DNA of 64,000 nt from positions 122,000 through 185,999 of the forward strand of contig CAZIVL010000001.1 of NCBI GenBank assembly GCA_964543035.1. The letters are read 5' to 3'. The DNA is from an uncultured Gammaproteobacteria bacterium (lineage in GTDB: Bacteria > Patescibacteriota > Microgenomatia > CAZETR01 > Amesbacteraceae). A program made the position numbers and the translations under genes. The stretch's first letter is position 1. The number at the start of each line of letters is the position of its first letter. Of this stretch, positions 22,768-58,970 are shown piece by piece. The notes beneath the pieces are model-generated. The model saw only the letters and a program-made list of their open reading frames with translations. It did not search any database and was not told the DNA's origin.

Positions 22768-25700
22768 CTAATTCATCGCCTGAACTTTGAAGTCTTCCCA
22801 AACAAAGTGCAGGTTATCTATGGTTGTTTTAGTCTCGGGCAAGATTCTTGAAACGATAACATCGTTGCCAAATAGGTCGTTAATGACATCCCCTTCTTTG
22901 GTGAATATTTTTTCGGCAATCATTTCTTTGGCTTCAGCTGCGCCAATATAAACTGGTACATATTTTTTGCCACCGATATAGACTGGGTTAAAGCCATCAA
23001 CTGGGATCATTTCTTTGACTTCGGTAGGATAGCGTTTATCCATTAGGTAAAATTGTTTGACTACGCCTTCGGGTGTAGTGATTTTAACTATCTCACCTGC
23101 TTTTGGTGCAGCTTGTACTTGTTGGGTTTTATCCATAGGGTTTTCACTGGCCATAGTCGAGCTAAATCGAGCAAATTCAATAAATATGAAGGTAAATACA
23201 ACCATCATAACAGCGGGCGCAAACATGGAAACATAGTTCTTCTTGCCCGGAACAAATTGGCGCAATAGAAGTGAATTTCCAACAACGGAAATTGAACTCA
23301 GAGCCATAGCCAGCCCTGCGAGTTCCGGTTTGAGAACGAGTCCAGCAAATGCAAAGACACGGGCAGCCACGGGAATACCGATCACGTTATAAAACAGGGC
23401 AAAGAACATGTTTTGCTTTACTTTTTGCATGGTGGATTTGGAAAGGTCGATAGCGTGTACCACATCACGTAAGTCGTTCTTAATAATGACGATGCCTCCC
23501 GCTTCCATGGCCACATCAGTCCCTGAACCCATGGCAATGCCTAAATCAGCTTGAGCTAAAGCTGGCGCGTCATTAATACCATCTCCGACCATGGCTACCT
23601 TTTTTCCGGCATCCTGAAGCTTTTTCACTTCATTGGCTTTATCTTGTGGTAGGACTTCCGACAAGACATTGGTAATTCCAACTTGAGATGCAATGGCTTT
23701 AGCAGTTCGAGCGTTATCTCCCGTGATCATCCACACTTCAATACCAAGTTTTTGTAGCTTTTCTACTGCCTCTCGTGACGTTTCTTTGACTGTGTCGGCA
23801 ACTCCAATGATGCCCAAGATTCCGTCTTTAGTAGCCAGAGTCATCACCGTTTTACCTTGTTCTTCGAGTCGATTAATCTTTCGATCATACTTACCTACTT
23901 CTAGGCCAAGGGTGTCGGTCATGAGCTTTCTGTTACCAAAGTAGTAAACGGTGTCACCAATTTGACCTTTAACGCCGTGACCCGGAATGGCACTAAAGTT
24001 TTCGACACTACTTAAGGACACATTTTCTTCCTGAGCATAACTATAAATGGCTTCAGCCAATGGATGCTCGGATTGCTTCTCTAAGCTAGCTGAGATTTGC
24101 AGCACTTCATCTTCAGTAAAGCTGCCAAAGTCTTCAATATCTGTTACCTCGGGTTTGCCTTTTGTAATGGTTCCGGTTTTATCAAAAATAATGGCATTTA
24201 CTTTACAAGCCGATTCTAATGGTTCTCCACCTTTGACCAGTATTCCATGTTCAGCACCCTTGCCAGTTCCCACCATAATGGCCGTGGGTGTAGCCAAACC
24301 TAGAGCACAAGGACAGGCAATGACAATAACTGCTGTAAATGCCATTAAAGCAAAAGACAAAGTGGACCCAAGCAGGAAGTACCAGACACCAAAGGTAAGT
24401 AGAGCCACGATAATAACCGCTGGAACAAACCAAGATGAAATGCGGTCAGCAAAGGCTTGAATTGGCGCTTTTGAGCCTTGAGCGTCTTCGACTAATCGAA
24501 TAATTTGTGACAAAGTGGTTTCTGAGCCTATACGAGTGGCTTTGAATTCAAAACTTCCGGTTTTATTAATAGTACCTCCAATGACATTGTCGCCGGAATT
24601 CTTCTCAACGGGTAGACTTTCACCAGTAATCATTGACTCATCTATGGCTGACATACCTTTGAGAATGACACCATCAACCGGAACTTTTTCTCCCGGACGA
24701 ACGACAACAATGTCATCTTTCACGACCTGATCAACTGGAATATCAAGGGTACTGCCATTACGAACCACGCGCGCGGTCTTGGCCTGAAGCCCCATGAGTT
24801 TTTTAATTGCTTCAGACGTTCGACCTTTAGCTTTGGCTTCTAAAAACTTCCCTAATAGCACAAAGGTAATCAAGAATGCAGCAGTTTCAAAATACAGCTC
24901 AGGAATTTTGGCACCACCAAGTCCGATTAAAGAATCGTTTATGGCAAAGTATTTAATGAAATTGACGACACTGTAAAAGTAGGCTACAGAGGTGCCAATG
25001 GCGATTAAACTATCCATGTTAAAGGTACGCATACGAAGAGCCGACATCATGCCTTTATAGAATCCCGATCCGATGAAAAATTGCACCGGTGTTGCTAAAA
25101 CAAAAGAGATAACTCCCACCCATGGAAGTAGCAGCTTTGCGCCGGGAATAAAGTTGAAGAAATCAAACAACATAAAGTAAATCATGGGTAGTGACAAGAT
25201 AAAGCTAACTAGAAACCGTTTGTATTGGGACCTAATTTCGTTTTGTTGGCGAAGGGATTGTTCCTTTGTATCGGCTGTATCGGCAACCTCTGCTTTGTAT
25301 CCGGCTTTTACAACGGCTTGCAATAAATCCTGGTTTGATGCCTGAGACGGATCAAATACGACTGCAGCTTTTTCTGCCGCAAAATTAACCCGGGCTTCGG
25401 TAACTCCTGAAACCTTTTTTAATTGACGTTCAATTATTTGAGCGCAAGAAGAGCAGTGCATACCGAATATTGCTAAATTAGCCCGACCTGTTTTTTCGCT
25501 TTTAACAGCGGCGGATACAACTTCAGAAGCTGTACTTATGGGTTGTTGTTCTGTATCAGTCGTTGTATTTCCAAAGCGCAATTTGCCTTTAATGCTAAAT
25601 TGCCCATCGGCATCACGGCCAATTTTTCCATCAATTTCAACTTCCTGTGGAAATGATATTTGCGAAACATAAAGGGGGGTATTAGGAGCGAGTACTCCGT

Positions 25701-25956
25701 TAACTTGCCCATTTGCATGTCCGTTTGAGTGGACAGTGTCGCCCATAACTCTACCTTTATAGCCTGCAGTTTGAATTGCAGACAGAATTTTATCGCTAGT
25801 TACCTGTTGATTTCCGGCAACTAGAGTCCCAAGGCCTGATTTAAATTCCAAGTTCACATCCTTTACACCCGGAATTGAACTTAATTCGTCTTTGATTAAC
25901 AGCTCGCAGGAAGCACAGTGCATACCATCTACTTGAAATTGAATTTTTTGGTTCAT
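22768..25956 (-). CDS. copA: Cu(I)-translocating P1B-type ATPase with two N-terminal HMA domains and a roughly 200-aa C-terminal extension
   Basis: Two MHCxSC HMA motifs, TGES, CPC ([12 protein letters not shown]), DKTGTIT and [10 protein letters not shown]. An extra TM helix plus soluble tail follows the last canonical helix. Confidence 0.85.
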
Positions 25957-26186
25957 AGTGTCTCCTTTTGAGTCGCCTCATACGGCGTGCCGGTCAAACT
26001 TGCTTGAATTTGATCCAGGCTCAAATTTGAATTCGATTCGACCGTAGCCTTACTGGTTTTTAAATCAACGCTGACTGTTTGGACCCCATTTATGGCGCCA
26101 ATTCGTTTTTCTGAAACTTTTTTGCAAGCAGTGCAAGTAAGACCTGATAATGTAAATAGTTGTGTATACATGAGTATTCCTTTCAT
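25953..26186 (-). CDS. HMA-domain copper-chaperone-like protein
   Basis: A single CTAC metal-binding motif in an HMA-sized ORF; start overlaps the upstream gene. Confidence 0.6.
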
Positions 26187-27928
26187 TAAATAACCTTTAT
26201 TTGACCCCTAGGTGCTCCCATAGCACACGTAATGCTGTAAGTACCTTTCTTGGTTGGGGTAAAGTCAAAAGCTGTAACTTTACCCTTAGTGAAGACTTCA
26301 ATTTTGGACGTCAATCCAGGAAGAGCCACACTGCCCATGCAACCCTGGCCGTCTTCTTTGGCATCGATTTCAAAACGAACCGGCTCATTGACTTTAACGG
26401 TAAATTGAGTCGGCGAAATATCCCCCCGAACGGTGTAACTTGCTGTTATAACTTGAGCATTTGCAGAACTAACCTGAGATGTTTGTGACTGATTTATAGT
26501 GTTGGTCAAAGCTGGTTGAGTATTGAAGTTGGCGGGTATTGTCGTACTTTGGTTGCTAGTTCCTTCAACAACCGTAAATGAACCGGTATACATGCCCATG
26601 ATGCAAGAGAAATTGATAGTTCCAGTCTGGGTTGGCGTAAATTCAATGATGTTTTCACCCTTTTGTAATCCTTGACGGATACCGAGTTTTTGGGAAATGA
26701 TACTGGCTGCACAGGTGTATGAATCTTCGGAGGTGATGACCCAGCGAGTTGGCAGACCCTTTCGAATCGTAAACTTATTTGGTACATAGCCTCCAGAAAC
26801 TTGTCTCATCCGCACAACTTGGACACCCTCTATGATTGATACATTAGTGTCTTTAGTACCTTCAGCACTGGCCTTACTAGTAAATGCTCCTAACACAGAC
26901 ACTGCTGGGTTTAACCCCAGTAAATTCAAACCGTTCGAAATGTTAAATATAGCCAAAAGTATGACCACTACACCTACTGTTTTGAAAAAGAGACGAGCGA
27001 CAGAGCCCTTAATTGCCGAGGTTAAACCACCAACACCCAAAAGCCCTGGCGCTGTGCCGAGAGCAAAGACGCCCATGGTTAAGGCCCCGGCCAAGGCACT
27101 GCCCGAACTAATAGCGTAAAGTTGCATGGCTTGAGTAAAGCCACAGGGTAAAAAGAAAGTTAAGGCTCCCATGATGACGGCATTCTTATTGCTGTATTCA
27201 ACTTCTGCTCGATTTTTAACACCAAAGAATCGGCTGATTCCGGTAGGAAGCGTAAAGGATATCTTTTTTAAGAATGGGAATATTTCTATGAGCTGGCTGC
27301 CCAAAAGCAACATCACGATGCCAACCGCGACAGTCATAATACCCAAGGCAGAAGAAGATAACTGGAATAATGTACCGGCATAGCCAATTACTCCACCTAA
27401 AATAAAATAGGAAACAACTCTCCCCAAATTAAAGTACAAATGTGGTGTAAATTTCTCCATACCTGTAGCGTTTGGATGTTTCTCGGCAAAGCGTGCTGCC
27501 GCTCCTAAAACCAAGCCACCGACTAATGCCATACAGGTAGAAATTCCAGCGGTAAGCCCTACAAGAAATACGGTGGGTAAACTGGAATAATTATTGGAGA
27601 CATTGCTGACTAGGTTAAACAAACCCAAGCTTCGGGCAACCAAATACAAAACAATGGCTACAAAAAAAGCAATACCAAGTTCCTTGTAATCATATGGTTT
27701 TTTGGAGAAAAGTTCACGTTTTTCAACTCCAAGCATGTATCCTGCACGCTCCACTGCTCTTTGAACTGCTTGGTCATCAAGTACATTCTCGTAATGAATA
27801 AAGGCGTGGCCTTTGTGGTGATTAACTACCGCCTTGGTTACACCAGGAACTTTTTTGAGTTCGTCTTCAATTAAGATTTCGCAAGATCGGCAGTGCATGC
27901 CTTTGATAAGAATTTTGCAGTTTTGCAT
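26186..27928 (-). CDS. Fusion protein: HMA domain, DsbD_2/CcdA-like Cys-bearing TM domain and two cupredoxin-like beta-sandwich repeats ending C-x-MGM / C-AMG
   Basis: MHCRSCE HMA; TM core with paired Cys (ISTCMA, LPCGFTQAM); C-terminal repeats FSCIMGMYTGSF and ITCAMGAPRGQ. Paralog of 54512-55779. Confidence 0.55.
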   Translation of the reverse strand: MQNCKILIKGMHCRSCEILIEDELKKVPGVTKAVVNHHKGHAFIHYENVLDDQAVQRAVERAGYMLGVEKRELFSKKPYDYKELGIAFFVAIVLYLVARSLGLFNLVSNVSNNYSSLPTVFLVGLTAGISTCMALVGGLVLGAAARFAEKHPNATGMEKFTPHLYFNLGRVVSYFILGGVIGYAGTLFQLSSSALGIMTVAVGIVMLLLGSQLIEIFPFLKKISFTLPTGISRFFGVKNRAEVEYSNKNAVIMGALTFFLPCGFTQAMQLYAISSGSALAGALTMGVFALGTAPGLLGVGGLTSAIKGSVARLFFKTVGVVVILLAIFNISNGLNLLGLNPAVSVLGAFTSKASAEGTKDTNVSIIEGVQVVRMRQVSGGYVPNKFTIRKGLPTRWVITSEDSYTCAASIISQKLGIRQGLQKGENIIEFTPTQTGTINFSCIMGMYTGSFTVVEGTSNQSTTIPANFNTQPALTNTINQSQTSQVSSANAQVITASYTVRGDISPTQFTVKVNEPVRFEIDAKEDGQGCMGSVALPGLTSKIEVFTKGKVTAFDFTPTKKGTYSITCAMGAPRGQIKVI

Positions 27929-27948: not shown

Positions 27949-28131
27949 CTAATGCTTGTGGTTACCACCTTTCATCATAAGAATATGGAGAAGCGGACAG
28001 GCAAGGATGAATCCATAGGTGAGGACCGATCCTACTGGCAGCTTAAAAACAAATAATGCCAAGCCTCCAGCAACTAGTCCCAAGAGGCAGATAATCAAAA
28101 CAGGGTGAGCCTTGAGTATATTCATACTCAT
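27949..28131 (-). CDS. Small two-TM protein with C-terminal LACPLLHILM...HKH motif (DUF2933-like)
   Basis: Paralog of 37469-37675; both lie immediately downstream of a histidine kinase. Confidence 0.5.
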   Translation of the reverse strand: MSMNILKAHPVLIICLLGLVAGGLALFVFKLPVGSVLTYGFILACPLLHILMMKGGNHKH

Positions 28132-28170: not shown

Positions 28171-29559
28171 TTAACGGGGAAAGTTCACCATAATGGTAGT
28201 AACCTTTTTAGGAGTACTTTCAATAGTAATTGTGCCCCTATGGGCTTCAATAATAGATTTACAAATAGCCAGTCCTAATCCTGATCCAAAAGTTGTCACT
28301 TTTTTGCCACCCCGGTAGAAGCGGTCAAAGACATGGGGTAAGTCGGCTTTTGAAATACCTGGTCCAGTGTTGGTAATTTCAATTAAGTCTGACGATTTGG
28401 TTCTTGATAAGGTCACAGAGATTCTGCCCTTTTCAGGTGTATATTTGACAGCATTCTCTAAAAGATTAAAAAATGCCCGAAATAGCTTTTGGCGTTTTCC
28501 GGCAATCTCAATATGCTGTTTGATTTCCTCAATTACATAGATCTGTTTCGCCTCTGCCATTTTCTTGGTGATATCGACAAGTTCTCCTAGCATTTCCGAC
28601 AGGTCAACCCTTTCAGTGTTTAAAAGTGGCTTGTCTGATTCCGACCAGGCCAAATCCAAAACATCATTAACAGTTCCGGATAAATGATCTACATCAACCA
28701 ACGTTTCGTTTAGTGTGTGCTGGTACTCTTTGGCGGTTCTGTCTTTTGAAAGTGTTACTTCAATTGAGTTTTTTAACGTTGATAAGGGTGTGCGTAGTTC
28801 ATGAGCTACATCGCCAATAAATTGCCGTTCTCGAGTAAACGAATCTGAAAGTCTAGTGAGCAGTGAGTTAAACGACGTAGATAATTCTTCTAGTTCATCG
28901 CCTGTTTTGAATATATGAATCGGTTGAGATAAATTTGACAGCGAAATCTCTTTGAGCTTTAAAGACAGTTGGGTTACGGGTTGCAACGCTTTTTTTGAAA
29001 TAATAAGGCCTCCGATAAGAGACAGTACGCTGGCTATACCAAAGATTAAGACAAGTTCTGAGGACAGCTTATTTAGCGAGTCAGTAATGACATCTGTCGG
29101 GTGACCGACTAAAACGAGGTTGTCTGTATTTTCATTTGTTGAAACCGGAAAGATTCCCACACGCATGTGAGTAGTTCCGATCGTTAGTTCAATAAATGAA
29201 GAATTGATTAGATTAGCCGATTTTTCAAAAACGTCTTTAAGTGTTTTTGTACTCGACTCAACTATTTGAGAAGAGCTTAGAATTTCCCCGTTTCTGTTGG
29301 CAATGACAATAAGCATTCCCGGCATTTCCGAAAACTCCCTACTTAGTTGTTCTTGGGGGAAAGAAGTATGCATGCCTACACTTTGTTGTGCAATTAGATC
29401 GACTATTTGCTCACCATGTTGAGTAATTTCTTGATCGGTTTGGGCTAGTAACGTTTGCTTAGTCACGACATAAAATATGCTAAATACTACTGCCGCGCTA
29501 ACAAAGAAGGTTACAAAATACCACAGTGATAATCTGAATCGAACGCTTTTCAGGTTCAT
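28171..29559 (-). CDS. Sensor histidine kinase (CusS/CopS-like)
   Basis: Two TM helices, HAMP, HisKA (AHELRTP) and HATPase (GSGLGLAI). Confidence 0.8.
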   Translation of the reverse strand: MNLKSVRFRLSLWYFVTFFVSAAVVFSIFYVVTKQTLLAQTDQEITQHGEQIVDLIAQQSVGMHTSFPQEQLSREFSEMPGMLIVIANRNGEILSSSQIVESSTKTLKDVFEKSANLINSSFIELTIGTTHMRVGIFPVSTNENTDNLVLVGHPTDVITDSLNKLSSELVLIFGIASVLSLIGGLIISKKALQPVTQLSLKLKEISLSNLSQPIHIFKTGDELEELSTSFNSLLTRLSDSFTRERQFIGDVAHELRTPLSTLKNSIEVTLSKDRTAKEYQHTLNETLVDVDHLSGTVNDVLDLAWSESDKPLLNTERVDLSEMLGELVDITKKMAEAKQIYVIEEIKQHIEIAGKRQKLFRAFFNLLENAVKYTPEKGRISVTLSRTKSSDLIEITNTGPGISKADLPHVFDRFYRGGKKVTTFGSGLGLAICKSIIEAHRGTITIESTPKKVTTIMVNFPR

Positions 29560-30233
29560 GATTTTTGCTCCGAAACTTTAAACCCTACACCATGGACTGT
29601 TTGAATTAATTTCACTTTGTCACCTCCGTCAATTTTTTTGCGCAAAGTGGTGACAAACACATCAACGACATTGCTCATACTGTCAAAGTTATAGTCCCAA
29701 ACATGTTCGGTAATCATGGTTCGGGTCACGACTTCATTTGGGTGACTCATTAATAGTTCCAGAATGGCAAATTCTTTGGGAGTGAGAGAAAGGTCTTTTC
29801 CACTTCTGACTACGGTGTGTTTAATGGGGTCAAGTTCCAAGTCAGCAACTTTTAGTGTAGGAGATGCGCTGTTGTGCGTTCTCCTAATCAAGGCCTGCAA
29901 ACGTGACTTTAATTCGATAAAAGAAAAAGGTTTGGACAAATAATCATCTGCGCCACTATCAAGTCCTTGAGATATGTTTTCAACAGTCCCCTTTGCAGTC
30001 AGCATCAATATGGGAGATTTATTCTTTTTGTTGCGCAAAGTTTTACATACCTGAATGCCGTCGACTTTTGGCAGCATGATATCTAAAATTATGCAGTCGT
30101 AGGTTTCCGATTCGGCCAAATACAGCCCTTCTTCACCATCAAAAGCTTGATCGACAGCAAATCCAGACTCCATCAGACCTTTTTTAAGAGAATCGGAAAG
30201 GCGCTTCTCGTCCTCAATAACTAGTATTCTCAT
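29556..30233 (-). CDS. OmpR-family response regulator (CusR/CopR-like)
   Basis: Receiver domain (DCIILDIMLP, LMLTAKG) plus a winged-helix domain. Confidence 0.85.
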   Translation of the reverse strand: MRILVIEDEKRLSDSLKKGLMESGFAVDQAFDGEEGLYLAESETYDCIILDIMLPKVDGIQVCKTLRNKKNKSPILMLTAKGTVENISQGLDSGADDYLSKPFSFIELKSRLQALIRRTHNSASPTLKVADLELDPIKHTVVRSGKDLSLTPKEFAILELLMSHPNEVVTRTMITEHVWDYNFDSMSNVVDVFVTTLRKKIDGGDKVKLIQTVHGVGFKVSEQKS

Positions 30234-30284: not shown

Positions 30285-31247
30285 TTATACTCCACATCCA
30301 CCATTTCGTTTTGGCGGCTCAGCCACTATTCCTTGGTCTATTAACCAACGCTTTGCTTGTTGAGAACCAGATGCCGATGAGAAGTCTTTAGACAACAGGG
30401 TTCTGGCATCAATCTGATCAAAGCTTTTACCTTCTTTGTTTTTGAAGTAAACGGCCAGATCATAGTAATTGCCGGGGAACCAGTAAGCATTAATATATTT
30501 GGAAGTATTGTACATATCCTCTTCTGAAGCACCATTTGCAGCCATTATCTCCAATATTCCCAACAGAGCCATTCCGTGATTACAATCAGGAAAAGCTGTC
30601 GAATTGTTACAGCAAGGCCTAAAAATGCTGGCAGCAACCTTTTCGACTAATTCTTCTTGAGCGGCAGTCAAAGGTATCAAGTTTCCTTTGGAGTAGTATT
30701 TCATAGCATCGCTTTTTCCAAGCGTCCAGCCACCGGTTGAAGCAAAGTTTTTTACTCCCTCAATGCCACCGTACTGAGTCATTTCCCCTTCAGTTAATAG
30801 CTTAGTTTTATTGGAAAGCCCCACTGCCCAAAAAAAGTTCAAAAGAAAATACGAATTTTCCTGATTGATAACAATGGTTTCATCCGAACCGTCAGTGAGG
30901 ATTCGCTCAAGATCTTCATAGAACGGCTTTCCAGACTTAAGGTACGCATCTTTAAACTTTTGTAAATCAATCACACCTTGATCAACCATTTTAGGACCCA
31001 ACTGGCCGTAAGAAACATTAAGGGAAATGCCCCTAGAAGGATTAATCTCCTCAAATATCGCTTGTGATTCTTGAGAAGAAGCTTGTGAACCTGTTACAAC
31101 TGTGGCTTGTGTCAATTTATCTTTCCTAAACACCGCCTTTATATCGGTAGCCTTTTTAGTTAGGGCCGGGAGGATCTGAAATAAATTAAGACCCACACTT
31201 ACAAACAAAAGCAACACAATTTTGTTTTTTAGAATTTTATTCTTCAT
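30285..31247 (-). CDS. Hypothetical secreted protein with Cys cluster PCCNNS-x7-DCNHG
   Basis: Signal anchor; a single conserved-looking Cys/His cluster that could bind metal. Confidence 0.4.
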   Translation of the reverse strand: MKNKILKNKIVLLLFVSVGLNLFQILPALTKKATDIKAVFRKDKLTQATVVTGSQASSQESQAIFEEINPSRGISLNVSYGQLGPKMVDQGVIDLQKFKDAYLKSGKPFYEDLERILTDGSDETIVINQENSYFLLNFFWAVGLSNKTKLLTEGEMTQYGGIEGVKNFASTGGWTLGKSDAMKYYSKGNLIPLTAAQEELVEKVAASIFRPCCNNSTAFPDCNHGMALLGILEIMAANGASEEDMYNTSKYINAYWFPGNYYDLAVYFKNKEGKSFDQIDARTLLSKDFSSASGSQQAKRWLIDQGIVAEPPKRNGGCGV

Positions 31248-32061
31248 GAGATTTTCCTTTGTATTTAAGTAACTTGTAGAAAATAAAAATAACTATGGCG
31301 AAAACTACTAAATCCACAATTGGGTTTTTAAAGTACTTGGCAATTTCAAAGACAACCAAACGAATTGTTTGACTGTATCCTTCCATCTGATCCATTTGAA
31401 TTTTTCCTTGATAGTTAAAATAGGCAATCAAAATTCCAGTCAAGAAGAAGATTCCTGCTGCCAACCACTTGAAAACGTCGTAAATCTTTTTGCGGTTTTT
31501 GCCGAACTTGTGTGATGCCTTGTCGTAAAAAAGAGACAGGACAAAGAGCGGCATCACGATACCTAAAACATAGGCGAATGAAACAATGGCTGCTTGTAAT
31601 AGTGTGGGTGATAGTGACGTTAAAGTCACAGCGGCAAACAATACAGGAGCACAACATGCTGAAGTCAGTCCGGACATTAGCCCTAACCCAAAGACACTTG
31701 CGGTATTAACCCTGGGATTTGCTTCCCCACCCACATGGAAGATTTGGGGAAGGTGAAATATAGGCTTGATGGTCGAAATACCCATGAGTACCATTACTAA
31801 GGCGCCCAGGTAATAAATCTGAGTATGGTACGCATCAAGTAAATAAATGGCTGAGCGAATGCCTAAAGAAATGGGTACTAAAATAAAAGCCAAACCTAAG
31901 GCAAAAATCAGAGTGTAGTACATAACTCGTTTATGGTTTTTAAAGATTGATCCCAGGTAAGATGGAAATAGAAACGTGATGCAACAGGGTGCAAATAGTG
32001 CCATAACCCCTGCTAAAAATGAGGCTGTGAGAGAGATGCCGAATAAAAAGCCTGTGTCCAT
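31237..32061 (-). CDS. CcdA/DsbD-like polytopic membrane protein with two intramembrane Cys-Cys pairs
   Basis: APCC in TM1 and SACCAP in a later helix (MerT/CcdA-like); six or more TM helices. Confidence 0.5.
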   Translation of the reverse strand: MDTGFLFGISLTASFLAGVMALFAPCCITFLFPSYLGSIFKNHKRVMYYTLIFALGLAFILVPISLGIRSAIYLLDAYHTQIYYLGALVMVLMGISTIKPIFHLPQIFHVGGEANPRVNTASVFGLGLMSGLTSACCAPVLFAAVTLTSLSPTLLQAAIVSFAYVLGIVMPLFVLSLFYDKASHKFGKNRKKIYDVFKWLAAGIFFLTGILIAYFNYQGKIQMDQMEGYSQTIRLVVFEIAKYFKNPIVDLVVFAIVIFIFYKLLKYKGKSHEE

Positions 32062-32558
32062 TAGTTTACCCTCGCTTGAATTGAAAACGATAATTTAGAA
32101 TTTTGCGGATCATTGGTAGTTACATAGACTTCACGGGTGACAAGTCCGTTAACTGGCATTGTGGCTGGTCGGTAAGTCAGGCGTACGGTGGCTGAATCGC
32201 CCGGGGCAATTTCGGTCACAAAACCGCTTTGCTTGTGCATGCCGAATTCTTTACTGGTTTCGCCTTTATAAATTATTTGTCCGGCGGTGCAACCACAGCT
32301 GGTATTGACGTTTAATATTTGTAGAGGCTTAGTGCCACCATTGGTGAGAGTAAAGTCTTGCACCTTAACATCTGAAAGCTTAAGGTCACCGACATCAAAA
32401 AATCGCTCAGAGACTTGGGCTATCGGACGGTCAGAGTCTGTTGCTGAGTAAGCTGCATTTGTAGGAGTGGGTTTTTGATTACCGCTAAACAGAAAAGCCG
32501 CTCCTACCACCATGATTATCAGAATAAATATATAAATAAGAACAGTTTTGGTTGACAT
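32061..32558 (-). CDS. DUF1573-like secreted protein (SCGCT motif)
   Basis: N-terminal anchor and a TSCGCTAG motif as in DUF1573. Confidence 0.5.
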   Translation of the reverse strand: MSTKTVLIYIFILIIMVVGAAFLFSGNQKPTPTNAAYSATDSDRPIAQVSERFFDVGDLKLSDVKVQDFTLTNGGTKPLQILNVNTSCGCTAGQIIYKGETSKEFGMHKQSGFVTEIAPGDSATVRLTYRPATMPVNGLVTREVYVTTNDPQNSKLSFSIQARVN

Positions 32559-50347: not shown

Positions 50348-50812
50348 TTACTCTTGTCTGAGATCCCCAATAAAGAGCTTTTCCAGCTGTGTTATAGCTT
50401 GTGCAGGATGCGGCCCTTTATTATTTGTCGGTCTATCATTAAATAAGGTTGTGGCATCTTTTCCGCAACCAGCAAGAACAGCCTTCCCTCCCGGGTGATT
50501 GGGAATAAACTCAGTAACGTCGTAGACTTTTCCTTCAATTGCCAGCCAGCAATCTGTCTCTAAATTATGTGTGGCAATTTCTTCAAGCGTATATGTTTTT
50601 GTGGCTGGTGTGGGGCTGCTAGAAATTTGAGATTCAACTCGATTCTTAGTGGTATCTGTATTTTGTGAAGGAGATGATAGTACAGGTTTTCTATTTGAAA
50701 ATAATAAAAATCCTCCACCCACCAGCAGAATGCCAATTATTACGACACCCATAACTACGGAATTTTTTGATTGCTTAGATTGATTATTTTGTTCGGTCTT
50801 ATCTGGATCCAT
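50348..50812 (-). CDS. Membrane-anchored cytochrome b5-like heme-binding domain protein
   Basis: HPGG motif within a YTLEEIATHN...VYDVTEF...HPGGK b5 core; N-terminal TM helix. Confidence 0.6.
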   Translation of the reverse strand: MDPDKTEQNNQSKQSKNSVVMGVVIIGILLVGGGFLLFSNRKPVLSSPSQNTDTTKNRVESQISSSPTPATKTYTLEEIATHNLETDCWLAIEGKVYDVTEFIPNHPGGKAVLAGCGKDATTLFNDRPTNNKGPHPAQAITQLEKLFIGDLRQE

Positions 50813-52005: not shown

Positions 52006-52209
52006 CTATTTATCCCCCTTTTTCTCACCGCGCATAAAAAACGCCATAGCACCGCACATAACAGTACACCCCAAAAGAGGTGCTGCTGCTATTAAACCGG
52101 CAATGCCAATAGCAGGAACGAAAATAAGTAATGAGACAATAATAACTCCCAAAATAAGAAGAACTTTTGGATTTAGACATCTCCTACATGAATGTAATAA
52201 TTTATTCAT
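52006..52209 (-). CDS. Small Cys-containing membrane protein (CRRC, GCTVMCG), start overlapping the copA stop (ATGA)
   Basis: Start ATG at 52207-52209 overlaps the ATPase stop at 52206-52208. Confidence 0.35.
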   Translation of the reverse strand: MNKLLHSCRRCLNPKVLLILGVIIVSLLIFVPAIGIAGLIAAAPLLGCTVMCGAMAFFMRGEKKGDK

Positions 52210-54497
52210 ATTCTCTGCGTCCTTAATCGTAACGAGTTTGTGACCACCGAAACACTACTAAATCCCATTGCAGCTCCAGCAATTGCGGGGTTTAAAAGAA
52301 TACCGAAAAATGGATACAATGCTCCAGCTGCAATTGGAATACCAATGACATTATAGAAGAATGCCCAAAAGAGGTTCTGCTTGATAATACTCATCGTTGC
52401 TCTAGCTAACTTTACCGCTTTTGGTAGTTTAGAAATATGTCCCCCTAAAAGCGTTATCCCTGCTGACTCAATTGCTACATCGGTTCCTGTCCCCATCGCA
52501 ATCCCCACATCAGCTGTAGCCAAAGCTGGCGCATCATTAATGCCGTCACCCACCATTGCCACTTTATAACCTTCTTTTTGGAGTTTCTGAATTTCACTGG
52601 CTTTGTCTCCTGGTAAGACTTCGGCGATGACTCGATCTATACCTACTTGTTTAGCGATGTGCTGAGCAGTTCTTTTGTTGTCTCCTGTAAGCATTGCGAC
52701 TTTAATACCTTGCTTGTGAAGCTCCGCCACTGCTTCTTTTGCATCGTCTTTGATGGTGTCAGCAATACCAATGTAAGCAATAACGTGCTTCCTGTTCATG
52801 AAGACTACTGGTGTTTTCCCTTGTGAAGCAAACTTTTTAATCATTTCTTCATCAATTTTTACTTTGAGATCATCAACCAACTTAAGATTACCAGCATAAT
52901 ACTCAGTATCATCAATACTTCCCTTTAGCCCTTTACCTTCAATTGCCTCAAAATCTTTTACTTTATGGAGGCTAATTTTTTCATCCTTAGCTTTTTCAAC
53001 GACTGCTTGGGCTAGTGGATGTTCAGAATGGCTTTCTAGTGAAGCGAGGAGTTGCAAAATATCTTTCTCTGAATGAGAGCCAATTGCCTGAATATCAGTC
53101 ACTTCCGGTGCCCCTTTAGTAATCGTTCCCGTTTTATCCATGACAACAAAGTTGACCCCATTAAACTTTTCTAGACTTTCAGCATTCTTAATCAAGATGC
53201 CATTCTGAGCAGCTTTGCCAACACCGACAATAATAGCGGTAGGCGTAGCGAGACCCATTGCACATGGACAGGCAATGACCAGAATTCCCACAAAACTCAA
53301 AATACCGAGCGTTAGTGCCTGGGAAAATGGCATGAATTGAACACCAATCACCAACCAAAGTATTAATGTAATAACTGCCAGGACCAACACCGCTGGGACA
53401 AAAATGGCTGACACTTGATCGGCCATCCGTTCAATCGGTGCTTTGGATCCCTGAGCCTCCTCAACCATTTTAATGATTTGCGAAAGCATGGTATCACTGC
53501 CAACTTTAGTAACTCTAATCTGCAATGAGCCTTGTTTGTTAATGGTCGCTCCGATAACAGTATCCTCTGGTCCTTTATCTACCGGAATAGGCTCACCGGT
53601 GATCATCGACTCATCAATAGAGGATTTGCCTTCGATAATGACTCCATCCAAGGGAATCTTGGTTCCAGGTTTCACGAGCATAATATCGCCAACTATAACT
53701 TGATCGATGGGTAATTCCACTTCCTTGCCATCTCGAAGAATGAGAGCATTTTTGGCCTGGAGTCCTAAGAGTTTTTCTATGGCTTCACCAGTCTTTAACT
53801 TCGAGCGAGCTTCGAGGAATTTCCCGAGGGTAATAAAACCAATAACAACAATAACGACGTCATAATAATTTTGCTGGGTATTAACATAAGGAGCCAGCAC
53901 TTTATCAAATGCAGTTACACTAAAGCTGTAAAGGAAAGCCACCAACGTTCCAATCCCTACAAGCGTGTCCATATTCGCCACACGATATTTTATAAAACGG
54001 ACGATTCCTTGAAGATATGGAACCCCAATGACAAACATTGTATAGGTGGCAAAAATCGGCAAAAGATGATGGAAAAACTCCATGATGGCTTCCGGCATCT
54101 CTGGCCATAACCGTAGAGGGTCAGCTCCTATTTCCCAGGTCATGACAAAAATGCTAAAGGCAACAAAAGGCATGGCAATCTGAACGTGCTTTTTTAGCTT
54201 TGAGAGTTCCTGGAGTTTTTGCTCTTTTGCAGTTTGGTCAGAGGAAACCGGCGACATATCATGGCCGGCATGAGGATTGGGTGGATTTTCTAAACTATAC
54301 CCAAGTTTTTGAACCTGGTCATTCATTTGGGAGAGGTTGACCTTGTCAGCGTCGAATGAAACTTCGGCTTTTTCTGTACCGTAATTAACGTTGCAAGAAA
54401 CTATACCATCCAGTTTTTCAAGTTTGCGCTTGATAATGCTGGCGCAAGATGCGCAGTGCATCCCTTTAACTGGAAATGTTTGTTTTATCTCTCCCAT
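52206..54497 (-). CDS. copA: Cu(I)-translocating P1B-type ATPase with a single N-terminal HMA domain
   Basis: [40 protein letters not shown]. Confidence 0.85.
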   Translation of the reverse strand: MGEIKQTFPVKGMHCASCASIIKRKLEKLDGIVSCNVNYGTEKAEVSFDADKVNLSQMNDQVQKLGYSLENPPNPHAGHDMSPVSSDQTAKEQKLQELSKLKKHVQIAMPFVAFSIFVMTWEIGADPLRLWPEMPEAIMEFFHHLLPIFATYTMFVIGVPYLQGIVRFIKYRVANMDTLVGIGTLVAFLYSFSVTAFDKVLAPYVNTQQNYYDVVIVVIGFITLGKFLEARSKLKTGEAIEKLLGLQAKNALILRDGKEVELPIDQVIVGDIMLVKPGTKIPLDGVIIEGKSSIDESMITGEPIPVDKGPEDTVIGATINKQGSLQIRVTKVGSDTMLSQIIKMVEEAQGSKAPIERMADQVSAIFVPAVLVLAVITLILWLVIGVQFMPFSQALTLGILSFVGILVIACPCAMGLATPTAIIVGVGKAAQNGILIKNAESLEKFNGVNFVVMDKTGTITKGAPEVTDIQAIGSHSEKDILQLLASLESHSEHPLAQAVVEKAKDEKISLHKVKDFEAIEGKGLKGSIDDTEYYAGNLKLVDDLKVKIDEEMIKKFASQGKTPVVFMNRKHVIAYIGIADTIKDDAKEAVAELHKQGIKVAMLTGDNKRTAQHIAKQVGIDRVIAEVLPGDKASEIQKLQKEGYKVAMVGDGINDAPALATADVGIAMGTGTDVAIESAGITLLGGHISKLPKAVKLARATMSIIKQNLFWAFFYNVIGIPIAAGALYPFFGILLNPAIAGAAMGFSSVSVVTNSLRLRTQRI

Positions 54498-54511: not shown

Positions 54512-54727
54512 TCAGGCCGCTATAACTACCTCGTATTCAAGTTTTTGTATAACAGCAATGATTTGGTCATGGTGGACTTTATCAGGATCGTATGTAACGA
54601 CCGAAATCTGTTTTGCATAGTGAGTTTTTGCCTCTTTTACACCATCCAAATCCCCCAACTCAAAGTCAATGTTGATGGCACAACTCGTACAGTGCATGCC
54701 CACGATTTCTAAAGTTATTGTTTTCAT
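54512..54727 (-). CDS. copZ: HMA-domain copper chaperone (CopZ-like)
   Basis: MHCTSCA motif in a 71-aa ORF. Confidence 0.7.
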   Translation of the reverse strand: MKTITLEIVGMHCTSCAINIDFELGDLDGVKEAKTHYAKQISVVTYDPDKVHHDQIIAVIQKLEYEVVIAA

Positions 54728-55779
54728 ACGCCTTTATCTTGAACGACATTTATCTCTCCACGAAACATACCCATGCTGCACATAAAGGCAAGTGGACCAG
54801 GAGTTGTGGGAGCAGTAAATTCAAGTGTGTCCGATTGACCAATCGCAACAACCCGCTGCAAACCAAGCTTGGGAACTGTTAGTGATTGCGTACATCCGCC
54901 TCCACCTTGATTGACAATGTTGAATTTGACCTTTGATCCAGCTCTAACATTAACAACAGCCGGTTCTGTCCGATAACCGTTTTGGGTGATAAAAATAGTC
55001 GCCTCCTTCACCGTAGCTGAATTAGTTGTAGCTCCAGCTACCCGACCTTCATCACAAAAACTAATCGTGCAAGTAATACTGGTTAAGACATTTTCAAAAG
55101 TGAAGTTACTGCCACTAAGTGCCAAAGCTCCATTAAAGTTATAGAGGGCTACCAAAATAATTGCTGCAGCTGCCACCTTGTTAAAGGTTCCACTGAGTGA
55201 ACTGCCTAGTTTCCGTGCCGCATACCCAAGAAGGAAAAATAACGGAGAAGTTCCTAGCATAAAAACAAACATGGTAGTTGCTCCGGCAAGAGGAGAGCCG
55301 GTTGAAATAGCATAAGCCATCATTGCTTGTGTTGCTCCACAGGGAATGAGAACCGTCATAGCTCCAAGGAGTGCCGGACCAAAGACAGCTTTACTCTTTG
55401 ATTGATTGCGTACTAATCGTGTTAAAAATTTGGGTGGCTGAATTACAAAGTAGCGAAAAATCGGGTGAACCTGAAGAAGATTAAGCGCAGTACCGACCAT
55501 AAACACTACTGCTGCAAATTGGAGGAGGACGCGGGCAGAAAGTGAAAGCTGAAATACTGAACCAAGAGATCCTAAGAGTAAACCAAGAATGGTATAAGCC
55601 ACCAATCGAGTAATTAAAAACGAAAGAATGGGGAGAAGATGTCCAAATCGTTTTGCGTCTTCTTCAAGCTTATTCTCTTCCTGCTGAGCAATTGAGCTGG
55701 CGAGAAGTCCACCCTGAACAGCTAGACACGTTAGTCCACCTGCAAATAATCCTGTGATGAAAATTGAGAGTATGTCCAT
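54724..55779 (-). CDS. DsbD_2/CcdA-like Cys-bearing TM domain fused to one cupredoxin-like C-terminal domain (C-SMGM)
   Basis: GGLTCLA and LIPCGATQAM TM cysteines; C-terminal FMCSMGMFRGEI. Paralog of 26186-27928 without the fused HMA. Confidence 0.55.
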   Translation of the reverse strand: MDILSIFITGLFAGGLTCLAVQGGLLASSIAQQEENKLEEDAKRFGHLLPILSFLITRLVAYTILGLLLGSLGSVFQLSLSARVLLQFAAVVFMVGTALNLLQVHPIFRYFVIQPPKFLTRLVRNQSKSKAVFGPALLGAMTVLIPCGATQAMMAYAISTGSPLAGATTMFVFMLGTSPLFFLLGYAARKLGSSLSGTFNKVAAAAIILVALYNFNGALALSGSNFTFENVLTSITCTISFCDEGRVAGATTNSATVKEATIFITQNGYRTEPAVVNVRAGSKVKFNIVNQGGGGCTQSLTVPKLGLQRVVAIGQSDTLEFTAPTTPGPLAFMCSMGMFRGEINVVQDKGV

Positions 55780-55801: not shown

Positions 55802-56581
55802 TTATGATTGCAATGCCTTATCAATCATCGGCTTGACTTGTTCAAAAGGTAAGGCGCCTGGAACAAGCTGGGTATCACCTTTTGCGTTGATAATAATAGT
55901 TCCTGGTGTACCGGTTACACCCTCAGCTGTTCCCTTGGCCATCTGATCCTTGACTTTTTGAGCCATTTCTCCAGAGTCTAAACACTGTTTGAACGATGAT
56001 TCATTAAGTCCCAACTCTTTGGCCAACGGAGTTAATTTGTCCAAGGCAAATCCAGTCCCATTAGAGGTGGTGCGTTCAAAGATAGCATCTGTATATTTCC
56101 AGAATGCTTCATTTCCACCAATTTTTCCAGCACACTCTGATGCTTCAGCTTCTTTTTGTGCATTGGCATGGAAAGAAAGCGGATAATGGCGGTATACCCA
56201 TTTCACCTTATCCCCGTATTCTTTCATAACCTGTTGCATCGTCGGGTGAAAACTTTTGCAGAATGGACATTCTAAATCTGAATACTCTACCATTACAACT
56301 TTGGCATTTTTGTTACCTTTGTACCAATCCTTATCGGTTACTTCCGGTTTTTTGGTTGCCACCTGGGGTTGAGGTGCGCCTGCAGCAGCCGGAGCACCCG
56401 CAGCTTGATTAGTACCTGTCGTGGTTGTTCCAGCCACCGCAGCGCCCTTTTCGAGATACTTGACTTTGGTGTAGAGAGATCCAATAGCAAACGATGCACC
56501 AATAAGAACTAAAACGAGAATAATGCTGAAATTACCTGAAAGCATATTTTTAAGAGGAGATAAATTTTTTTCTTCAGTCAT
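55802..56581 (-). CDS. Membrane-anchored DsbA/BdbD-like thiol-disulfide oxidoreductase (CPFC)
   Basis: TM anchor, Gly/Ala/Pro-rich linker, LECPFCKSFHP. Confidence 0.75.
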   Translation of the reverse strand: MTEEKNLSPLKNMLSGNFSIILVLVLIGASFAIGSLYTKVKYLEKGAAVAGTTTTGTNQAAGAPAAAGAPQPQVATKKPEVTDKDWYKGNKNAKVVMVEYSDLECPFCKSFHPTMQQVMKEYGDKVKWVYRHYPLSFHANAQKEAEASECAGKIGGNEAFWKYTDAIFERTTSNGTGFALDKLTPLAKELGLNESSFKQCLDSGEMAQKVKDQMAKGTAEGVTGTPGTIIINAKGDTQLVPGALPFEQVKPMIDKALQS

Positions 56582-56636: not shown

Positions 56637-57710
56637 TCAATAGGAAACTGACGTAAATTGTACTGGTGAATAAAGCCTTGAAGACTGAGGCGCCGAAATT
56701 GGAGGGGTCTGCATACAAGCATTAGTACATGCTCCACTTGGGTCAACACAAGCCATAACAGCATCTTCTCCCATGTCATGAAACTCGATAGCCTGTACTG
56801 GAGCTATTGTCAAACCACCCAAAATTGCCACGGACAGTATACTTATAACTACATTTCTTATTGAGAGGCACGGTGAAAATATTGTCTTTTTAGTAATGGT
56901 CCGGATACGAGTTTCTAATGTCTGAGCATCCATAAAACTTGGTACTATGGCTAAAGCCGGATAGAGATCATAATGCAGAAGTTTTGAAAGAACTGATCGG
57001 ACATGCTCCTTTCCATCATCCATAGCTGTAATTGCCGCATTATCAGCTTTAATTTCTCTTTGTGTTCTATACATTGCTATCAAATCCGTAAGAAGTGGGA
57101 AAAAAGGAAATAATGATTGAGTGAATACTGCAAATAGCATGATTAACGTATCATGATGCTCTAAATGATATTTTTCGTGTCGCAATACTGCTTCTATTTC
57201 ATCCGAAGTTGTAATTGCGAGCATTTGAGTAGAGATGTAGATTTTTGGCCTGGTAAATCCGAAACAAAAAGCGCCCACCTGTTCATCTTGTATAACCCGA
57301 ATTTTATTAACAAGGTGTAATTTTTTCGCAAGCGGCAGAATACTATCTTTCTCTACGATCTTTTCTTCAAGCGACTTATGTTGCTGAAAAACTCTCAGTA
57401 CTGTTAAAAAAACTTTTACTATTATATAGAGAGTCAAAGCAGCAAAACCCCACATCATAAAAAACTTAATATTCAAGCGTATTGGTTGCATCAAGACAGA
57501 CTGAAGCATTTCTCGGCAGTAATAGACAGTATTATGCAGAAGAAATGGAATGTATTTAGCACAAGCATTATATAGGAGTGTTCCTAACACAACAAAAATC
57601 CCTAAAAAAAACCACGCGTAGCTATTTATCTTTGTCATATATTTGTTCTTGTAAAAGTTTAAGAAAATACTCTTTTTTCTCTTTTGGCAAACGTTCGATG
57701 GATTGAGCAA
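56637..57710 (-). CDS. BlaR1/MecR1-type M56 zinc metallopeptidase with a Cys-rich C-terminal tail instead of a beta-lactam sensor (start probably the internal Met near 57638)
   Basis: Four TM helices, HEKYH(LEHHD) zincin motif, and a C-terminal TM helix plus ACVDPSGACTNACMQ. Confidence 0.65.
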   Translation of the reverse strand: MLNPSNVCQKRKKSIFLNFYKNKYMTKINSYAWFFLGIFVVLGTLLYNACAKYIPFLLHNTVYYCREMLQSVLMQPIRLNIKFFMMWGFAALTLYIIVKVFLTVLRVFQQHKSLEEKIVEKDSILPLAKKLHLVNKIRVIQDEQVGAFCFGFTRPKIYISTQMLAITTSDEIEAVLRHEKYHLEHHDTLIMLFAVFTQSLFPFFPLLTDLIAMYRTQREIKADNAAITAMDDGKEHVRSVLSKLLHYDLYPALAIVPSFMDAQTLETRIRTITKKTIFSPCLSIRNVVISILSVAILGGLTIAPVQAIEFHDMGEDAVMACVDPSGACTNACMQTPPISAPQSSRLYSPVQFTSVSY

Positions 57711-58044
57711 AAGAAGCTAGGGCAGCATCGCCAAATGTTCCGAAGAATTTATCTAAAAGATTCCTCGCCATTTTTTGGCTAAATTCCTCTTTAGTTTGTT
57801 TTGGGGCAAAGACGACGGTAAAAGCCGAGGCATCTTTTTCAACTAACCCTTTTTCATGCAACCTTTCTAAAATCGTGGCAATCGTCGTATACGCAAGAGT
57901 CTTTGTTTTATTCGTCTCATCGGCCACTTCCCTAATGGTGCATTCACCCAATGCCCAGACAACATTCATCGTTTCCTGCTCTAGGTCGCTCAAGTTTTTC
58001 TGTGCCATACTACGTATTGTAGAAGGTTGAATGAAAAAAGACAA
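57622..58044 (-). CDS. BlaI/MecI/CopY-family winged-helix repressor
   Basis: TIATILERLHEKGLV penicillinase-repressor signature; precedes the M56 peptidase. Confidence 0.7.
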   Translation of the reverse strand: MSFFIQPSTIRSMAQKNLSDLEQETMNVVWALGECTIREVADETNKTKTLAYTTIATILERLHEKGLVEKDASAFTVVFAPKQTKEEFSQKMARNLLDKFFGTFGDAALASFAQSIERLPKEKKEYFLKLLQEQIYDKDK

Positions 58045-58060
58045 CCCAACGCATTATTCT

Positions 58061-58970
58061 CCGTAGAAATCCGGCATTGGGCATACAATTATGGAAATGC
58101 TCAATGCTACAAAGATTGTTCTTGCCTGGGAGTTGTATGAGTCTGGTATTTGTAAGGTGGATGTAGCCAAAAGGTTGGAGGTAAATCGAGATACGGTTCG
58201 AGTTTGGATTCAGGGAGTCCAAAAACATAGCCTCAACACATTTCTTGATTTGTATGCCTCTGCAAAAAAGGGTTCAAGACCCAAACGCCAGATTGATCCA
58301 ATTCTCAAACGGTGGGTTTGGGATATTCGTGAACGGGAGTTGGACTGCTGTGGTCAAAAGATAAACTACTTTCTGGAAAAAGAACGTGGGGTAAGTGTGT
58401 CCATTCCCAAGATTTACGAGATACTCGCTGAAAAGTATCAAATAAAAAGTAAATGGAAAAAGAATCAGGCTCTAGGACCGGTACCAGAGGCCCAAAAGGC
58501 ACGTGAGGTCATCCAGATGGACTCCATAGACTTTGGCGGGATATTTGCATTTACTGCGGTGGATATATTTTCTCGCGAAGCTGATGTCTTGTTACGACCA
58601 TCGTTAACTAGTCATGACGGACTAGTTTTCTTGGAAACGTGTATGCCTCGGAGATTTGATGGCCACAGCAAGTTAATCCAATCTGATGGCGGACCCGAAT
58701 TCAAAGATGAATTCAAAGAAAACGTTGGACAATATACCGATAGATACCGAATTTCTGCTGCATACAAAAAGAACGAGCAGGCATATATTGAGTCGTTTAA
58801 TAGAACAGTTAGAAAAGAATGTTTAGGTTGGAGTAAATACCACCCTGATCAAATCACCCAGCTTAACTACCTGGTAAACACTTTCCTTGAGCGGTATCAT
58901 TACCACAGGCCACATTTAGGTCTAGGATTAAGACCACCGCTTACCAAGTCCTAGTGCCGGATATTTACGG
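58061..58970 (+). mobile_element. IS481-like insertion sequence (single transposase, imperfect roughly 17-bp terminal inverted repeats)
   Basis: Left end CCGTAGAAATCCGGCAT versus reverse complement of right end CCGTAAATATCCGGCAC (14/17 match), bracketing the transposase ORF. Confidence 0.55.
58091..58954 (+). CDS. DDE transposase (rve integrase core, IS481-like) with N-terminal HTH
   Basis: DDE residues in QMDSID, QSDGGPEF and IESFNRT contexts. Confidence 0.8.
   Translation: MEMLNATKIVLAWELYESGICKVDVAKRLEVNRDTVRVWIQGVQKHSLNTFLDLYASAKKGSRPKRQIDPILKRWVWDIRERELDCCGQKINYFLEKERGVSVSIPKIYEILAEKYQIKSKWKKNQALGPVPEAQKAREVIQMDSIDFGGIFAFTAVDIFSREADVLLRPSLTSHDGLVFLETCMPRRFDGHSKLIQSDGGPEFKDEFKENVGQYTDRYRISAAYKKNEQAYIESFNRTVRKECLGWSKYHPDQITQLNYLVNTFLERYHYHRPHLGLGLRPPLTKS

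Follow-up and report, generated by a model that had tools for sequence, protein, structure and literature searches.

Copper efflux from cells with a single membrane is usually described as the joint work of the chaperone CopZ and the P-type ATPase CopA, and the handling of Cu(I) at the outer face is largely unknown. The membrane protein CcdA has a conserved cysteine pair, one in transmembrane helix (TM) 1 and one in TM4, and these cysteines are known to alternate between the two membrane faces. Here we analyse a stretch of 64,000 nucleotides (contig CAZIVL010000001.1, positions 122,000 to 185,999 of the forward strand, assembly GCA_964543035.1; the whole of it is called the window) from an uncultured bacterium of the GTDB lineage Patescibacteriota. 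It contains two genes, T1 and T2, that encode one membrane module in two layouts, each in an operon with a gene for a CopA. The module joins an HMA metal-binding domain, a DsbD_2-like core of six helices and cupredoxin domains homologous to the streptococcal protein CupA. From these sequences we tentatively take T1, and likewise T2 when paired with its HMA protein, to be a relay that carries Cu(I), and possibly also Ag(I) or Hg(II), through the membrane, most likely outward, a reading that we put a little short of an even chance.

Relatives of each part have been described. CupA combines a high-affinity bis-thiolate site (S1) with a methionine-rich site (S2), the bridging cysteine being common to both; its cysteines can reduce Cu(II) in vitro, and the protein is described as confined to a few streptococci (PMC7558416). 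The DsbD family of electron carriers belongs to the LysE superfamily, the other families of which are largely metal-ion exporters, and its reported roles include copper and mercury resistance (PMC4608589). Proteins of COG2836, composed of HMA, DsbD_2 and DUF2318, have been assigned by prediction to the CsoR regulon of gut Firmicutes (PMC4938975), and a neighbourhood table has a row reading CopZ, DsbD_2-cupredoxin, P-type ATPase and CsoR for a Chloroflexi metagenome-assembled genome (MAG) (PMC8756737). With the COG2836 proteins the window module has HMA, DsbD_2 and a computational link to copper regulation in common; they differ in carrying DUF2318 instead of a CupA-like cupredoxin, and they are likewise uncharacterised. 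Full-text literature searches found no functional study of the family (DsbD_2, PF13386, COG2836) and two incidental mentions only, in agreement with the initial annotation of this DNA, which had said that textbook cop operons have no such component. All of the domains belong to known types, and the architecture, though catalogued, is unstudied. The databases misname it, listing such proteins as 'sulfite exporter TauE/SafE family protein' or '(urease accessory protein) UreH domain-containing protein'.

The module and its immediate partners are laid out as follows, locus A holding the fused and locus B the split form.

26186..27928 (-): T1, 580 aa, HMA, extra helix TM0, DsbD_2 core and two CupA-like repeats (Pfam, 120 same-architecture orthologs)
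27737..27910 (-): T1 HMA domain, residues 7-64, motif GMHCRSC (Pfam E 1.3e-11)
27614..27676 (-): T1 extra helix TM0, about residues 85-105 (hydropathy, tally of Lys and Arg; helix 78-100 in the model)
26948..27574 (-): T1 six-TM DsbD_2 core, residues 119-327 (Pfam E 1.9e-32)
26570..26833 (-): T1 CupA-like repeat 1, residues 366-453, with C406, C442, M444 and M446
26189..26461 (-): T1 CupA-like repeat 2, about residues 490-580, with C530-M531, C568 and M570 (Pfam, alignment, model)
25953..26186 (-): separate CopZ-like HMA chaperone, 77 aa, CTAC motif (Pfam, junction sequence)
22768..25956 (-): first CopA, 1062 aa, two HMA domains (Pfam; CPC, YN and MxxSS motifs)
54724..55779 (-): T2, 351 aa, split layout, DsbD_2 core and one CupA-like repeat (Pfam, alignment)
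54512..54727 (-): split-off HMA partner of T2, 71 aa, GMHCTSC (Pfam)
52206..54497 (-): second CopA, 763 aa, one HMA domain (GMHCASC motif), CPC, YN and MxxSS motifs (sequence)

The initial annotation had described one module in two layouts, fused in T1 (26186-27928) and split into T2 plus an HMA gene (54512-55779), and had named the HMA, DsbD_2-like and cupredoxin-like parts. Both statements stand, given Pfam matches that all lie well over the cut-offs and the paralogy of T1 and T2 (30% identity over 350 residues, E 3e-35), which at this identity are old paralogs and not the outcome of a recent duplication. DsbD_2 scores 113 bits in T1 and 117 bits in T2 (residues 6-212, E 1.2e-33), the Pfam cut-off being 24.9; T2 also matches DsbD_TM (36.7 bits, cut-off 27.1). 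HMA matches range from E 1e-11 to 5e-14, with the metal motifs CRSC, CTSC and CTAC. Cupredoxin_1 covers residues 255-343 of T2 and two stretches of T1 (E 5e-18, best 366-453), and the AlphaFold model of T1 (pLDDT 80.9) has its second beta domain at 492-579. The layout of the core is that of the DsbD/CcdA type, six helices arranged 3+3 with one conserved cysteine each in TM1 and TM4: C132 (codon 27533-27535) and P261-C262-G263 (C262 codon 27143-27145) in T1, C18 and P146-C147-G148 in T2. In the model of the core domain, helices TM1 and TM4 are broken at exactly these two cysteines.

Both copies are tightly packed with the copper genes. In locus A the order of transcription is response regulator, histidine kinase, a 60-aa open reading frame (ORF), T1, copZ and copA; the stop of T1 overlaps the start of copZ (TAATG) and copZ overlaps copA (ATGA), so that the overlapping junctions couple T1 to copZ to copA in translation. 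In locus B the order is BlaI/CopY-like repressor, M56 protease, DsbA-like protein, T2, HMA gene and copA, with an ATGA overlap between the T2 stop and the HMA gene and a gap of 14 nt from there to the second copA; the split-off HMA itself is the sole chaperone of this locus. The initial annotation had put the module downstream of copA and its chaperone; because all genes lie on the minus strand, it is in fact the first gene, upstream (5') of copZ and copA. The start that it gave for the fused module, 25953, takes in the separate 77-aa CopZ gene. The membrane motifs CPC, YN and MxxSS, found in both window CopAs, are known as the signature of Cu(I)-type P1B-1 ATPases.

The cupredoxin-like repeats are CupA homologs and, judged by alignment, retain its Cu(I) ligands, with binding being predicted. 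A phmmer search of T1 against PDB sequences gave CupA of Streptococcus pneumoniae (2MRY/4F2E) at E 2.1e-10 and the cupredoxin-type metal-binding domain of S. pneumoniae CopA (4F2F) at E 2.8e-9; a profile of 119 T2-family sequences gave the same two at E 1.2e-19 and E 8.6e-17. Residues C406, C442, M444 and M446 of T1 repeat 1, and C296, C334, M336 and M338 of T2, align with the Cys...Cys-x-Met-x-Met ligands of CupA, which we take to be Cys74, Cys111, Met113 and Met115. The motif endings C-x-MGM and C-AMG read as the initial annotation described them: FSC-I-M-G-M in repeat 1 (C442, M444, M446), FMC-S-M-G-M in T2 and ITC-A-M-G-A in repeat 2 (C568, M570), where the second methionine is replaced by alanine and both cysteines and one methionine are kept. 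T1 and T2 share with CupA the homology of the cupredoxin fold, the two cysteines of S1 and the C-x-M-x-M ligands of S2. They differ from it in placement, CupA being held on the cytoplasmic side by a single N-terminal anchor, whereas the domain here follows a core of six to seven TM helices and is predicted to lie outside, and in occurrence, once or twice per protein and in at least four phyla (probably five). In S. pneumoniae CopA the cupredoxin-type domain is part of the ATPase; the partner CopAs in the window bear HMA metal-binding domains instead. The linker between the two repeats carries a nearly invariant S-C-x-x-G-G-G-G-C-G-C-G in most T1 orthologs; that of the window T1 (about 26462-26569) is without the cysteine-rich motif and is rich in Asn, Gln, Ser and Thr instead.

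Conservation singles out the same residues. Among 120 orthologs with the architecture of T1, C13, C16, C132, C262 and the ligands of both repeats are conserved at 97-100% (the HMA cysteines C13 and C16 at 99%), as are M133, M206, M268 and H163. When T2 was compared exhaustively by HMMER with sequences clustered at 50% identity, 3583 clusters matched with E <= 1e-3 and 294 with E <= 1e-30; conservation was read from 118 full-length representatives with 30-68% identity to T2. In these the TM1 cysteine is present throughout (100%), Pro-Cys-Gly of TM4 at 100, 100 and 97%, the two cupredoxin cysteines at 98 and 99%, the two cupredoxin methionines at 92 and 94%, and the TM3 methionine (Met94) at 89%. 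The initial annotation had named two findings that would speak against it, a core foreign to DsbD/CcdA-type families and motifs not kept among homologs; the core matches DsbD_2, and in T2 DsbD_TM as well, and the Cys/Met motifs are 92-100% conserved in the 118 representatives. A Pfam scan of these together with T2 (119 sequences) found DsbD_2 in all 119, Cupredoxin_1 in 110, DsbD_TM in 36 and HMA in 11, and a thioredoxin-fold domain in none. The family also extends to Actinomycetota (including Mycobacteroides abscessus), Chloroflexota and Deinococcota, with an unannotated full-length match in the Bacillota species Acetoanaerobium noterae.

Given hydropathy and the positive-inside distribution of Lys and Arg, the HMA domain is predicted to be cytoplasmic and the CupA-like domains to lie outside in both layouts, as is the C-x-M-G-M motif, for which the initial annotation had supposed an outside location. 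By hydropathy T1 has seven TM segments, TM0 and the six of the core, and T2 has six. In T1 the parts predicted inside comprise a basic N-terminus and loops with 2, 6 and 2 Lys and Arg, and those predicted outside comprise short loops with 0, 0 and 0 and a post-TM6 linker with 2; for T2 the tally is 3, 6 and 2 in the inside loops, 0, 1 and 0 in the N-terminus and short loops outside, and 1 in the post-TM6 linker. Since the HMA domain would be cytoplasmic but the first helix of the core starts outside, TM0 is exactly the link needed in T1.

We propose that a CcdA/DsbD-type scaffold may have been repurposed in this module, with metal passed in place of electrons. Cu(I) would be held by the CxxC of the cytoplasmic HMA domain, fused in T1 and separate in T2, and would be passed on through ligand exchange to the invariant cysteine pair of TM1 and TM4 at the helix breaks, with conserved TM methionines close by. 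These cysteines would alternate between the membrane faces, and the metal would then be exchanged with the extracytoplasmic CupA-like domain, at its bis-thiolate site and its Cys/Met/Met site. Net flow would most likely be outward, thus affording an ATP-independent route beside CopA together with a tethered Cu(I) buffer at the surface. We infer that metal rather than electrons crosses because the HMA domain is obligatory, Met ligands are conserved, a thioredoxin-fold partner is missing and CcdA genes coexist with the module; outward flow or surface buffering is inferred from the co-transcription with CopZ and CopA under seemingly metal-responsive regulators. Control appears to be exerted by a two-component system of the heavy-metal type in locus A and by a BlaI/BlaR1-like pair in locus B. 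A metal relay that runs outward or in both directions comes close to an even proposition in our estimate. The observation made in the initial annotation is confirmed, and its interpretation, a thiol/metal relay that takes copper from the chaperone or ATPase side and delivers or buffers it outside, is partly supported.

Were the proposal to hold, cells would have a second, ATP-independent route for copper, or a surface acceptor or buffer, that is co-transcribed with CopA; the CupA fold would be widened from a streptococcal speciality to a broad outward-facing family, in what would be its first extracytoplasmic use; and there would be a concrete case of a DsbD/CcdA scaffold serving a metal. That the family represents an unrecognised, widespread class of copper transporters, in which a CcdA-like scaffold works by thiolate exchange between inner HMA and outer CupA-type domains, is a real possibility that we would not yet call probable. 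The hypothesis is directly testable, since the family occurs in tractable and clinically relevant actinobacteria (M. abscessus, Nocardia, Streptomyces).

How consistently the module is paired with copper genes can be judged from other genomes. Scanning one genome per species gave 57 loci, almost all of them from Patescibacteria, the others being one full-length Chloroflexota locus and one fragmentary match on an Anaerolinea contig. Neighbourhoods were counted for 37 close loci, with a flank of about 7 kb for the ATPase. The consistent pairing claimed in the initial annotation holds for HMA, which is the next gene in 35 of the 36 evaluable close (T2-type) loci and is fused in T1-type proteins; it does not hold to the same degree for CopA, a CopA-like ATPase lying within 400 bp in 18 of the 37 close loci, within about 7 kb in 28, and being absent from the flanks of all 16 Peribacteria loci. 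Of the 37 close loci, 17 have a BlaI-like gene, usually in the order BlaI, M56, DsbA, module, HMA, and the order response regulator, histidine kinase, ..., T1, HMA, CopA is kept in MAGs of Woesebacteria and other Patescibacteria. The homologs in Peribacteria (n=16, loci L040-L055) have a short cysteine-rich N-terminal tail (for example NCGCSDTEC or CQGACGSC) plus TM0 in place of the HMA domain and keep G-C...FMCSMGM. Throughout, the cytoplasmic partner is a metal-binding module, either HMA or, in Peribacteria, the cysteine-rich tail.

Beyond the candidate phyla, loci were collected by a tblastn search of plasmids followed by record look-ups. The gene after the core gene is annotated as HMA in Deinococcus, Tsukamurella, Mycolicibacterium, Candidatus Chlorohelix and on the chromosome of M. 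abscessus; in Streptomyces mirabilis the short next gene carries the annotation 'cation transporter' instead. These metal islands variously hold P1B ATPases, MerR or two-component regulators, merA/merB, a multicopper oxidase, BlaI with an M56/M48 protease, and separate CcdA and/or TlpA genes. BlaI and an M56/M48 protease are near the homologs in S. mirabilis and M. abscessus. Separate CcdA genes are annotated in the islands of Tsukamurella and Streptomyces, as one is present in the window; a TlpA gene lies beside the CcdA gene of Tsukamurella, and the Mycolicibacterium stretch lists TlpA only.

Several observations weigh against an outward metal relay. The only characterised relatives of the scaffold, CcdA and DsbD, carry electrons and not metals. 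Under copper stress the gradient would run steeply inward against a passive carrier, so that export would need coupling. In 18 of 35 loci the gene directly 5' of the T2 ortholog is DsbA-like, which suits a thiol-redox role, and relatives adjoin merA in Tsukamurella and lie near merB in Deinococcus, where import would be logical. The absence of a CopA-like gene from all 16 Peribacteria flanks belongs here too, as does the housekeeping context of the one Peribacteria locus that was inspected with Pfam (L045). Lastly, no solved structure matched the TM core significantly, and searches with the family profile and with the core model brought up no solved structure of CcdA or DsbD.

An inward relay following the logic of MerP and MerT would use the same parts in reverse: the outer CupA-like domain would take up Cu(I), Ag(I) or Hg(II) and pass it by way of the TM cysteines to HMA, which would feed CopZ and CopA (MerA in the actinobacterial islands) and so rid the envelope of reactive metal. 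We consider this unlikely, yet its anatomy is identical to that of the outward relay, and sequence sets no direction. The Mer relay, as generally known, offers the same logic of a soluble metal domain, membrane cysteines and a thiol acceptor on the opposite side, with the HMA fold involved (MerP, and NmerA likewise); the membrane protein MerT is unrelated in sequence, and the HMA domain of MerP is outside, whereas HMA is predicted inside here. Operons that confer resistance by importing the metal are known in MerT/MerP and CopC/CopD. Under copper stress the gradient from outside to inside favours uptake, the two putative regulators are both of an outside-sensing kind (the histidine kinase, and the BlaR1-like protein with its Cys/Met-rich tail), and the neighbourhoods with merA and merB fit import. 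However, in a cell with a single membrane there seems little point in bringing in copper that CopA would then return to the compartment it came from, and we know of no cytoplasmic step of copper detoxification, unlike the reduction of mercury by MerA. The mycobacterial mercury importer MerH (Mycobacterium marinum pMM23), a transporter with two essential cysteines, was tried as a relative and rejected; it is a 171-aa protein of the unrelated MerC family, with an hhalign probability of 0.7% against the T2 profile.

An electron relay in the style of CcdA, just as improbable in our view, would have the TM cysteine pair export reductant to the outer CupA-like cysteines, and perhaps to the DsbA-like neighbour, keeping these cysteines reduced for binding Cu(I) or for reducing Cu(II). 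The core is DsbD_2, with DsbD_TM matched too in T2 and 35 of the 118 representatives, and its two cysteines in TM1 and TM4 are placed as in CcdA. Compared with CcdA, DsbD and ScsB, the T1/T2 family shows the same profile matches, a six-TM core and cysteines at the helix breaks of the model, and the DsbD family is linked to copper tolerance; on this reading the module would resemble the copper-protective ScsB/ScsC and DsbD systems. Cysteine ligands exposed outside require a source of reductant, and the frequent DsbA-like gene (18 of 35 loci) would fit. The copper and mercury resistance roles of the DsbD family (PMC4608589) and the reduction of Cu(II) by CupA cysteines in vitro (PMC7558416) speak for the same reading. 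Differences from the known proteins are nonetheless substantial. The family is without a thioredoxin-fold domain (0 of 119 members) and has metal-binding modules on both faces, its obligatory cytoplasmic partner being the HMA metallochaperone fold or a cysteine-rich tail and not thioredoxin; in addition, TM1 of T1 and T2 has no proline before the cysteine as found in CcdA and DsbD. Dedicated CcdA genes are present in the same islands, with TlpA beside the one in Tsukamurella, and the CcdA-type protein of the window matches T2 weakly (E 3e-4). Met ligands and TM methionines have no redox explanation. The six-TM subunits RnfA/RnfE and NqrD/NqrE act as heterodimers inside redox pumps, and neither a sequence nor a Foldseek comparison gave a significant match to them.

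That the database names are right, and the protein is a sulfite or organosulfonate exporter (TauE/SafE), a UreH-type nickel permease or a CcdA of cytochrome c biogenesis, is very improbable. The source names TauE/SafE and UreH speak for it. Against it, the TauE profile is not among the families listed for T1 and T2 at E <= 0.01 in the Pfam scan, a thiophilic metal is indicated by the fused or adjacent HMA, by the Cu(I) ligands of CupA type and by the location in cop operons, and these two operons have no urease or cytochrome c maturation genes.

The remaining genes in and around the two loci are these.

28171..30233 (-): two-component system 5' of T1, heavy-metal type by best NCBIfam matches
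29556-30233 (-): its response regulator, best NCBIfam match cztR_silR_copR, just under the curated cut-off
28171-29559 (-): its histidine kinase, best NCBIfam match cztS_silS_copS, just under the curated cut-off
27949-28131 (-): 60-aa two-helix membrane ORF between the histidine kinase and T1, weak DUF2933 match
30285-31247 (-): 320-aa ORF with the Cys-rich motif PCCNNSTAFPDCNHG and a GGCGV end, no family match
31237-32061 (-): CcdA-type gene, separate from T1 and T2, DsbD_TM (Pfam)
32061-32558 (-): DUF1573 gene
57622-58044 (-): BlaI/CopY-like repressor
56637-57710 (-): M56 BlaR1-like protease
55802-56581 (-): membrane-anchored DsbA-like protein, CPFC
52006-52209 (-): 67-aa two-helix membrane ORF, several cysteines

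The BlaR1-like M56 protease has a Cys/Met-rich tail (MACVDPSGACTNACM) beyond its last hydrophobic segment, and the C-terminus of its BlaI/CopY-like partner is without a cysteine-rich motif; the pair could be an extracytoplasmic metal sensor. The CopY operator TACANNTGTA has 0 matches in the window, and scans of the window for promoters and terminators gave counts at chance level. Two similar-looking loci in the literature were considered and set aside: copYZ of the Streptomyces mirabilis plasmid pI (SMIR_41155, SMIR_41160; PMC9195940) is a locus different from the homolog on the same plasmid and yields no functional data on the latter, and the copper-induced cg3283-cg3282-copB of Corynebacterium glutamicum, with its similar order (PMC3140484), serves as a lead only, cg3283 being a possible member.

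In the region of residues about 906-1062 the first CopA has an extra, ninth hydrophobic segment (906-936) and, beyond it, a C-terminal domain of some 125 aa; this domain had no Pfam or PDB sequence match and is predicted by topology to be outside the cell. CopAs adjoining T1-type genes in other genomes are likewise long (908-1049 aa). The small two-helix membrane ORFs (60 aa, 67 aa) flank the operons and have homologs in loci L013 and L015. The 320-aa ORF overlaps the CcdA-type gene, comes after the DUF1573 gene and is directly upstream of the two-component system; its homologs are near CopA-type ATPases in loci L021, L023, L028 and L032. The region 22768-58954 of the window looks like a large metal-resistance island, possibly mobile. 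Four P1B-type ATPases start within about 32 kb of it, at 22768, 33702, 48402 and 52206; that at 48402 is without a metal-binding domain, and that at 33702 has an HMBD domain. Also present are two DsbA-like genes, a cytochrome b5-like gene (50348-50812) and an integrase-like ORF (58091-58954).

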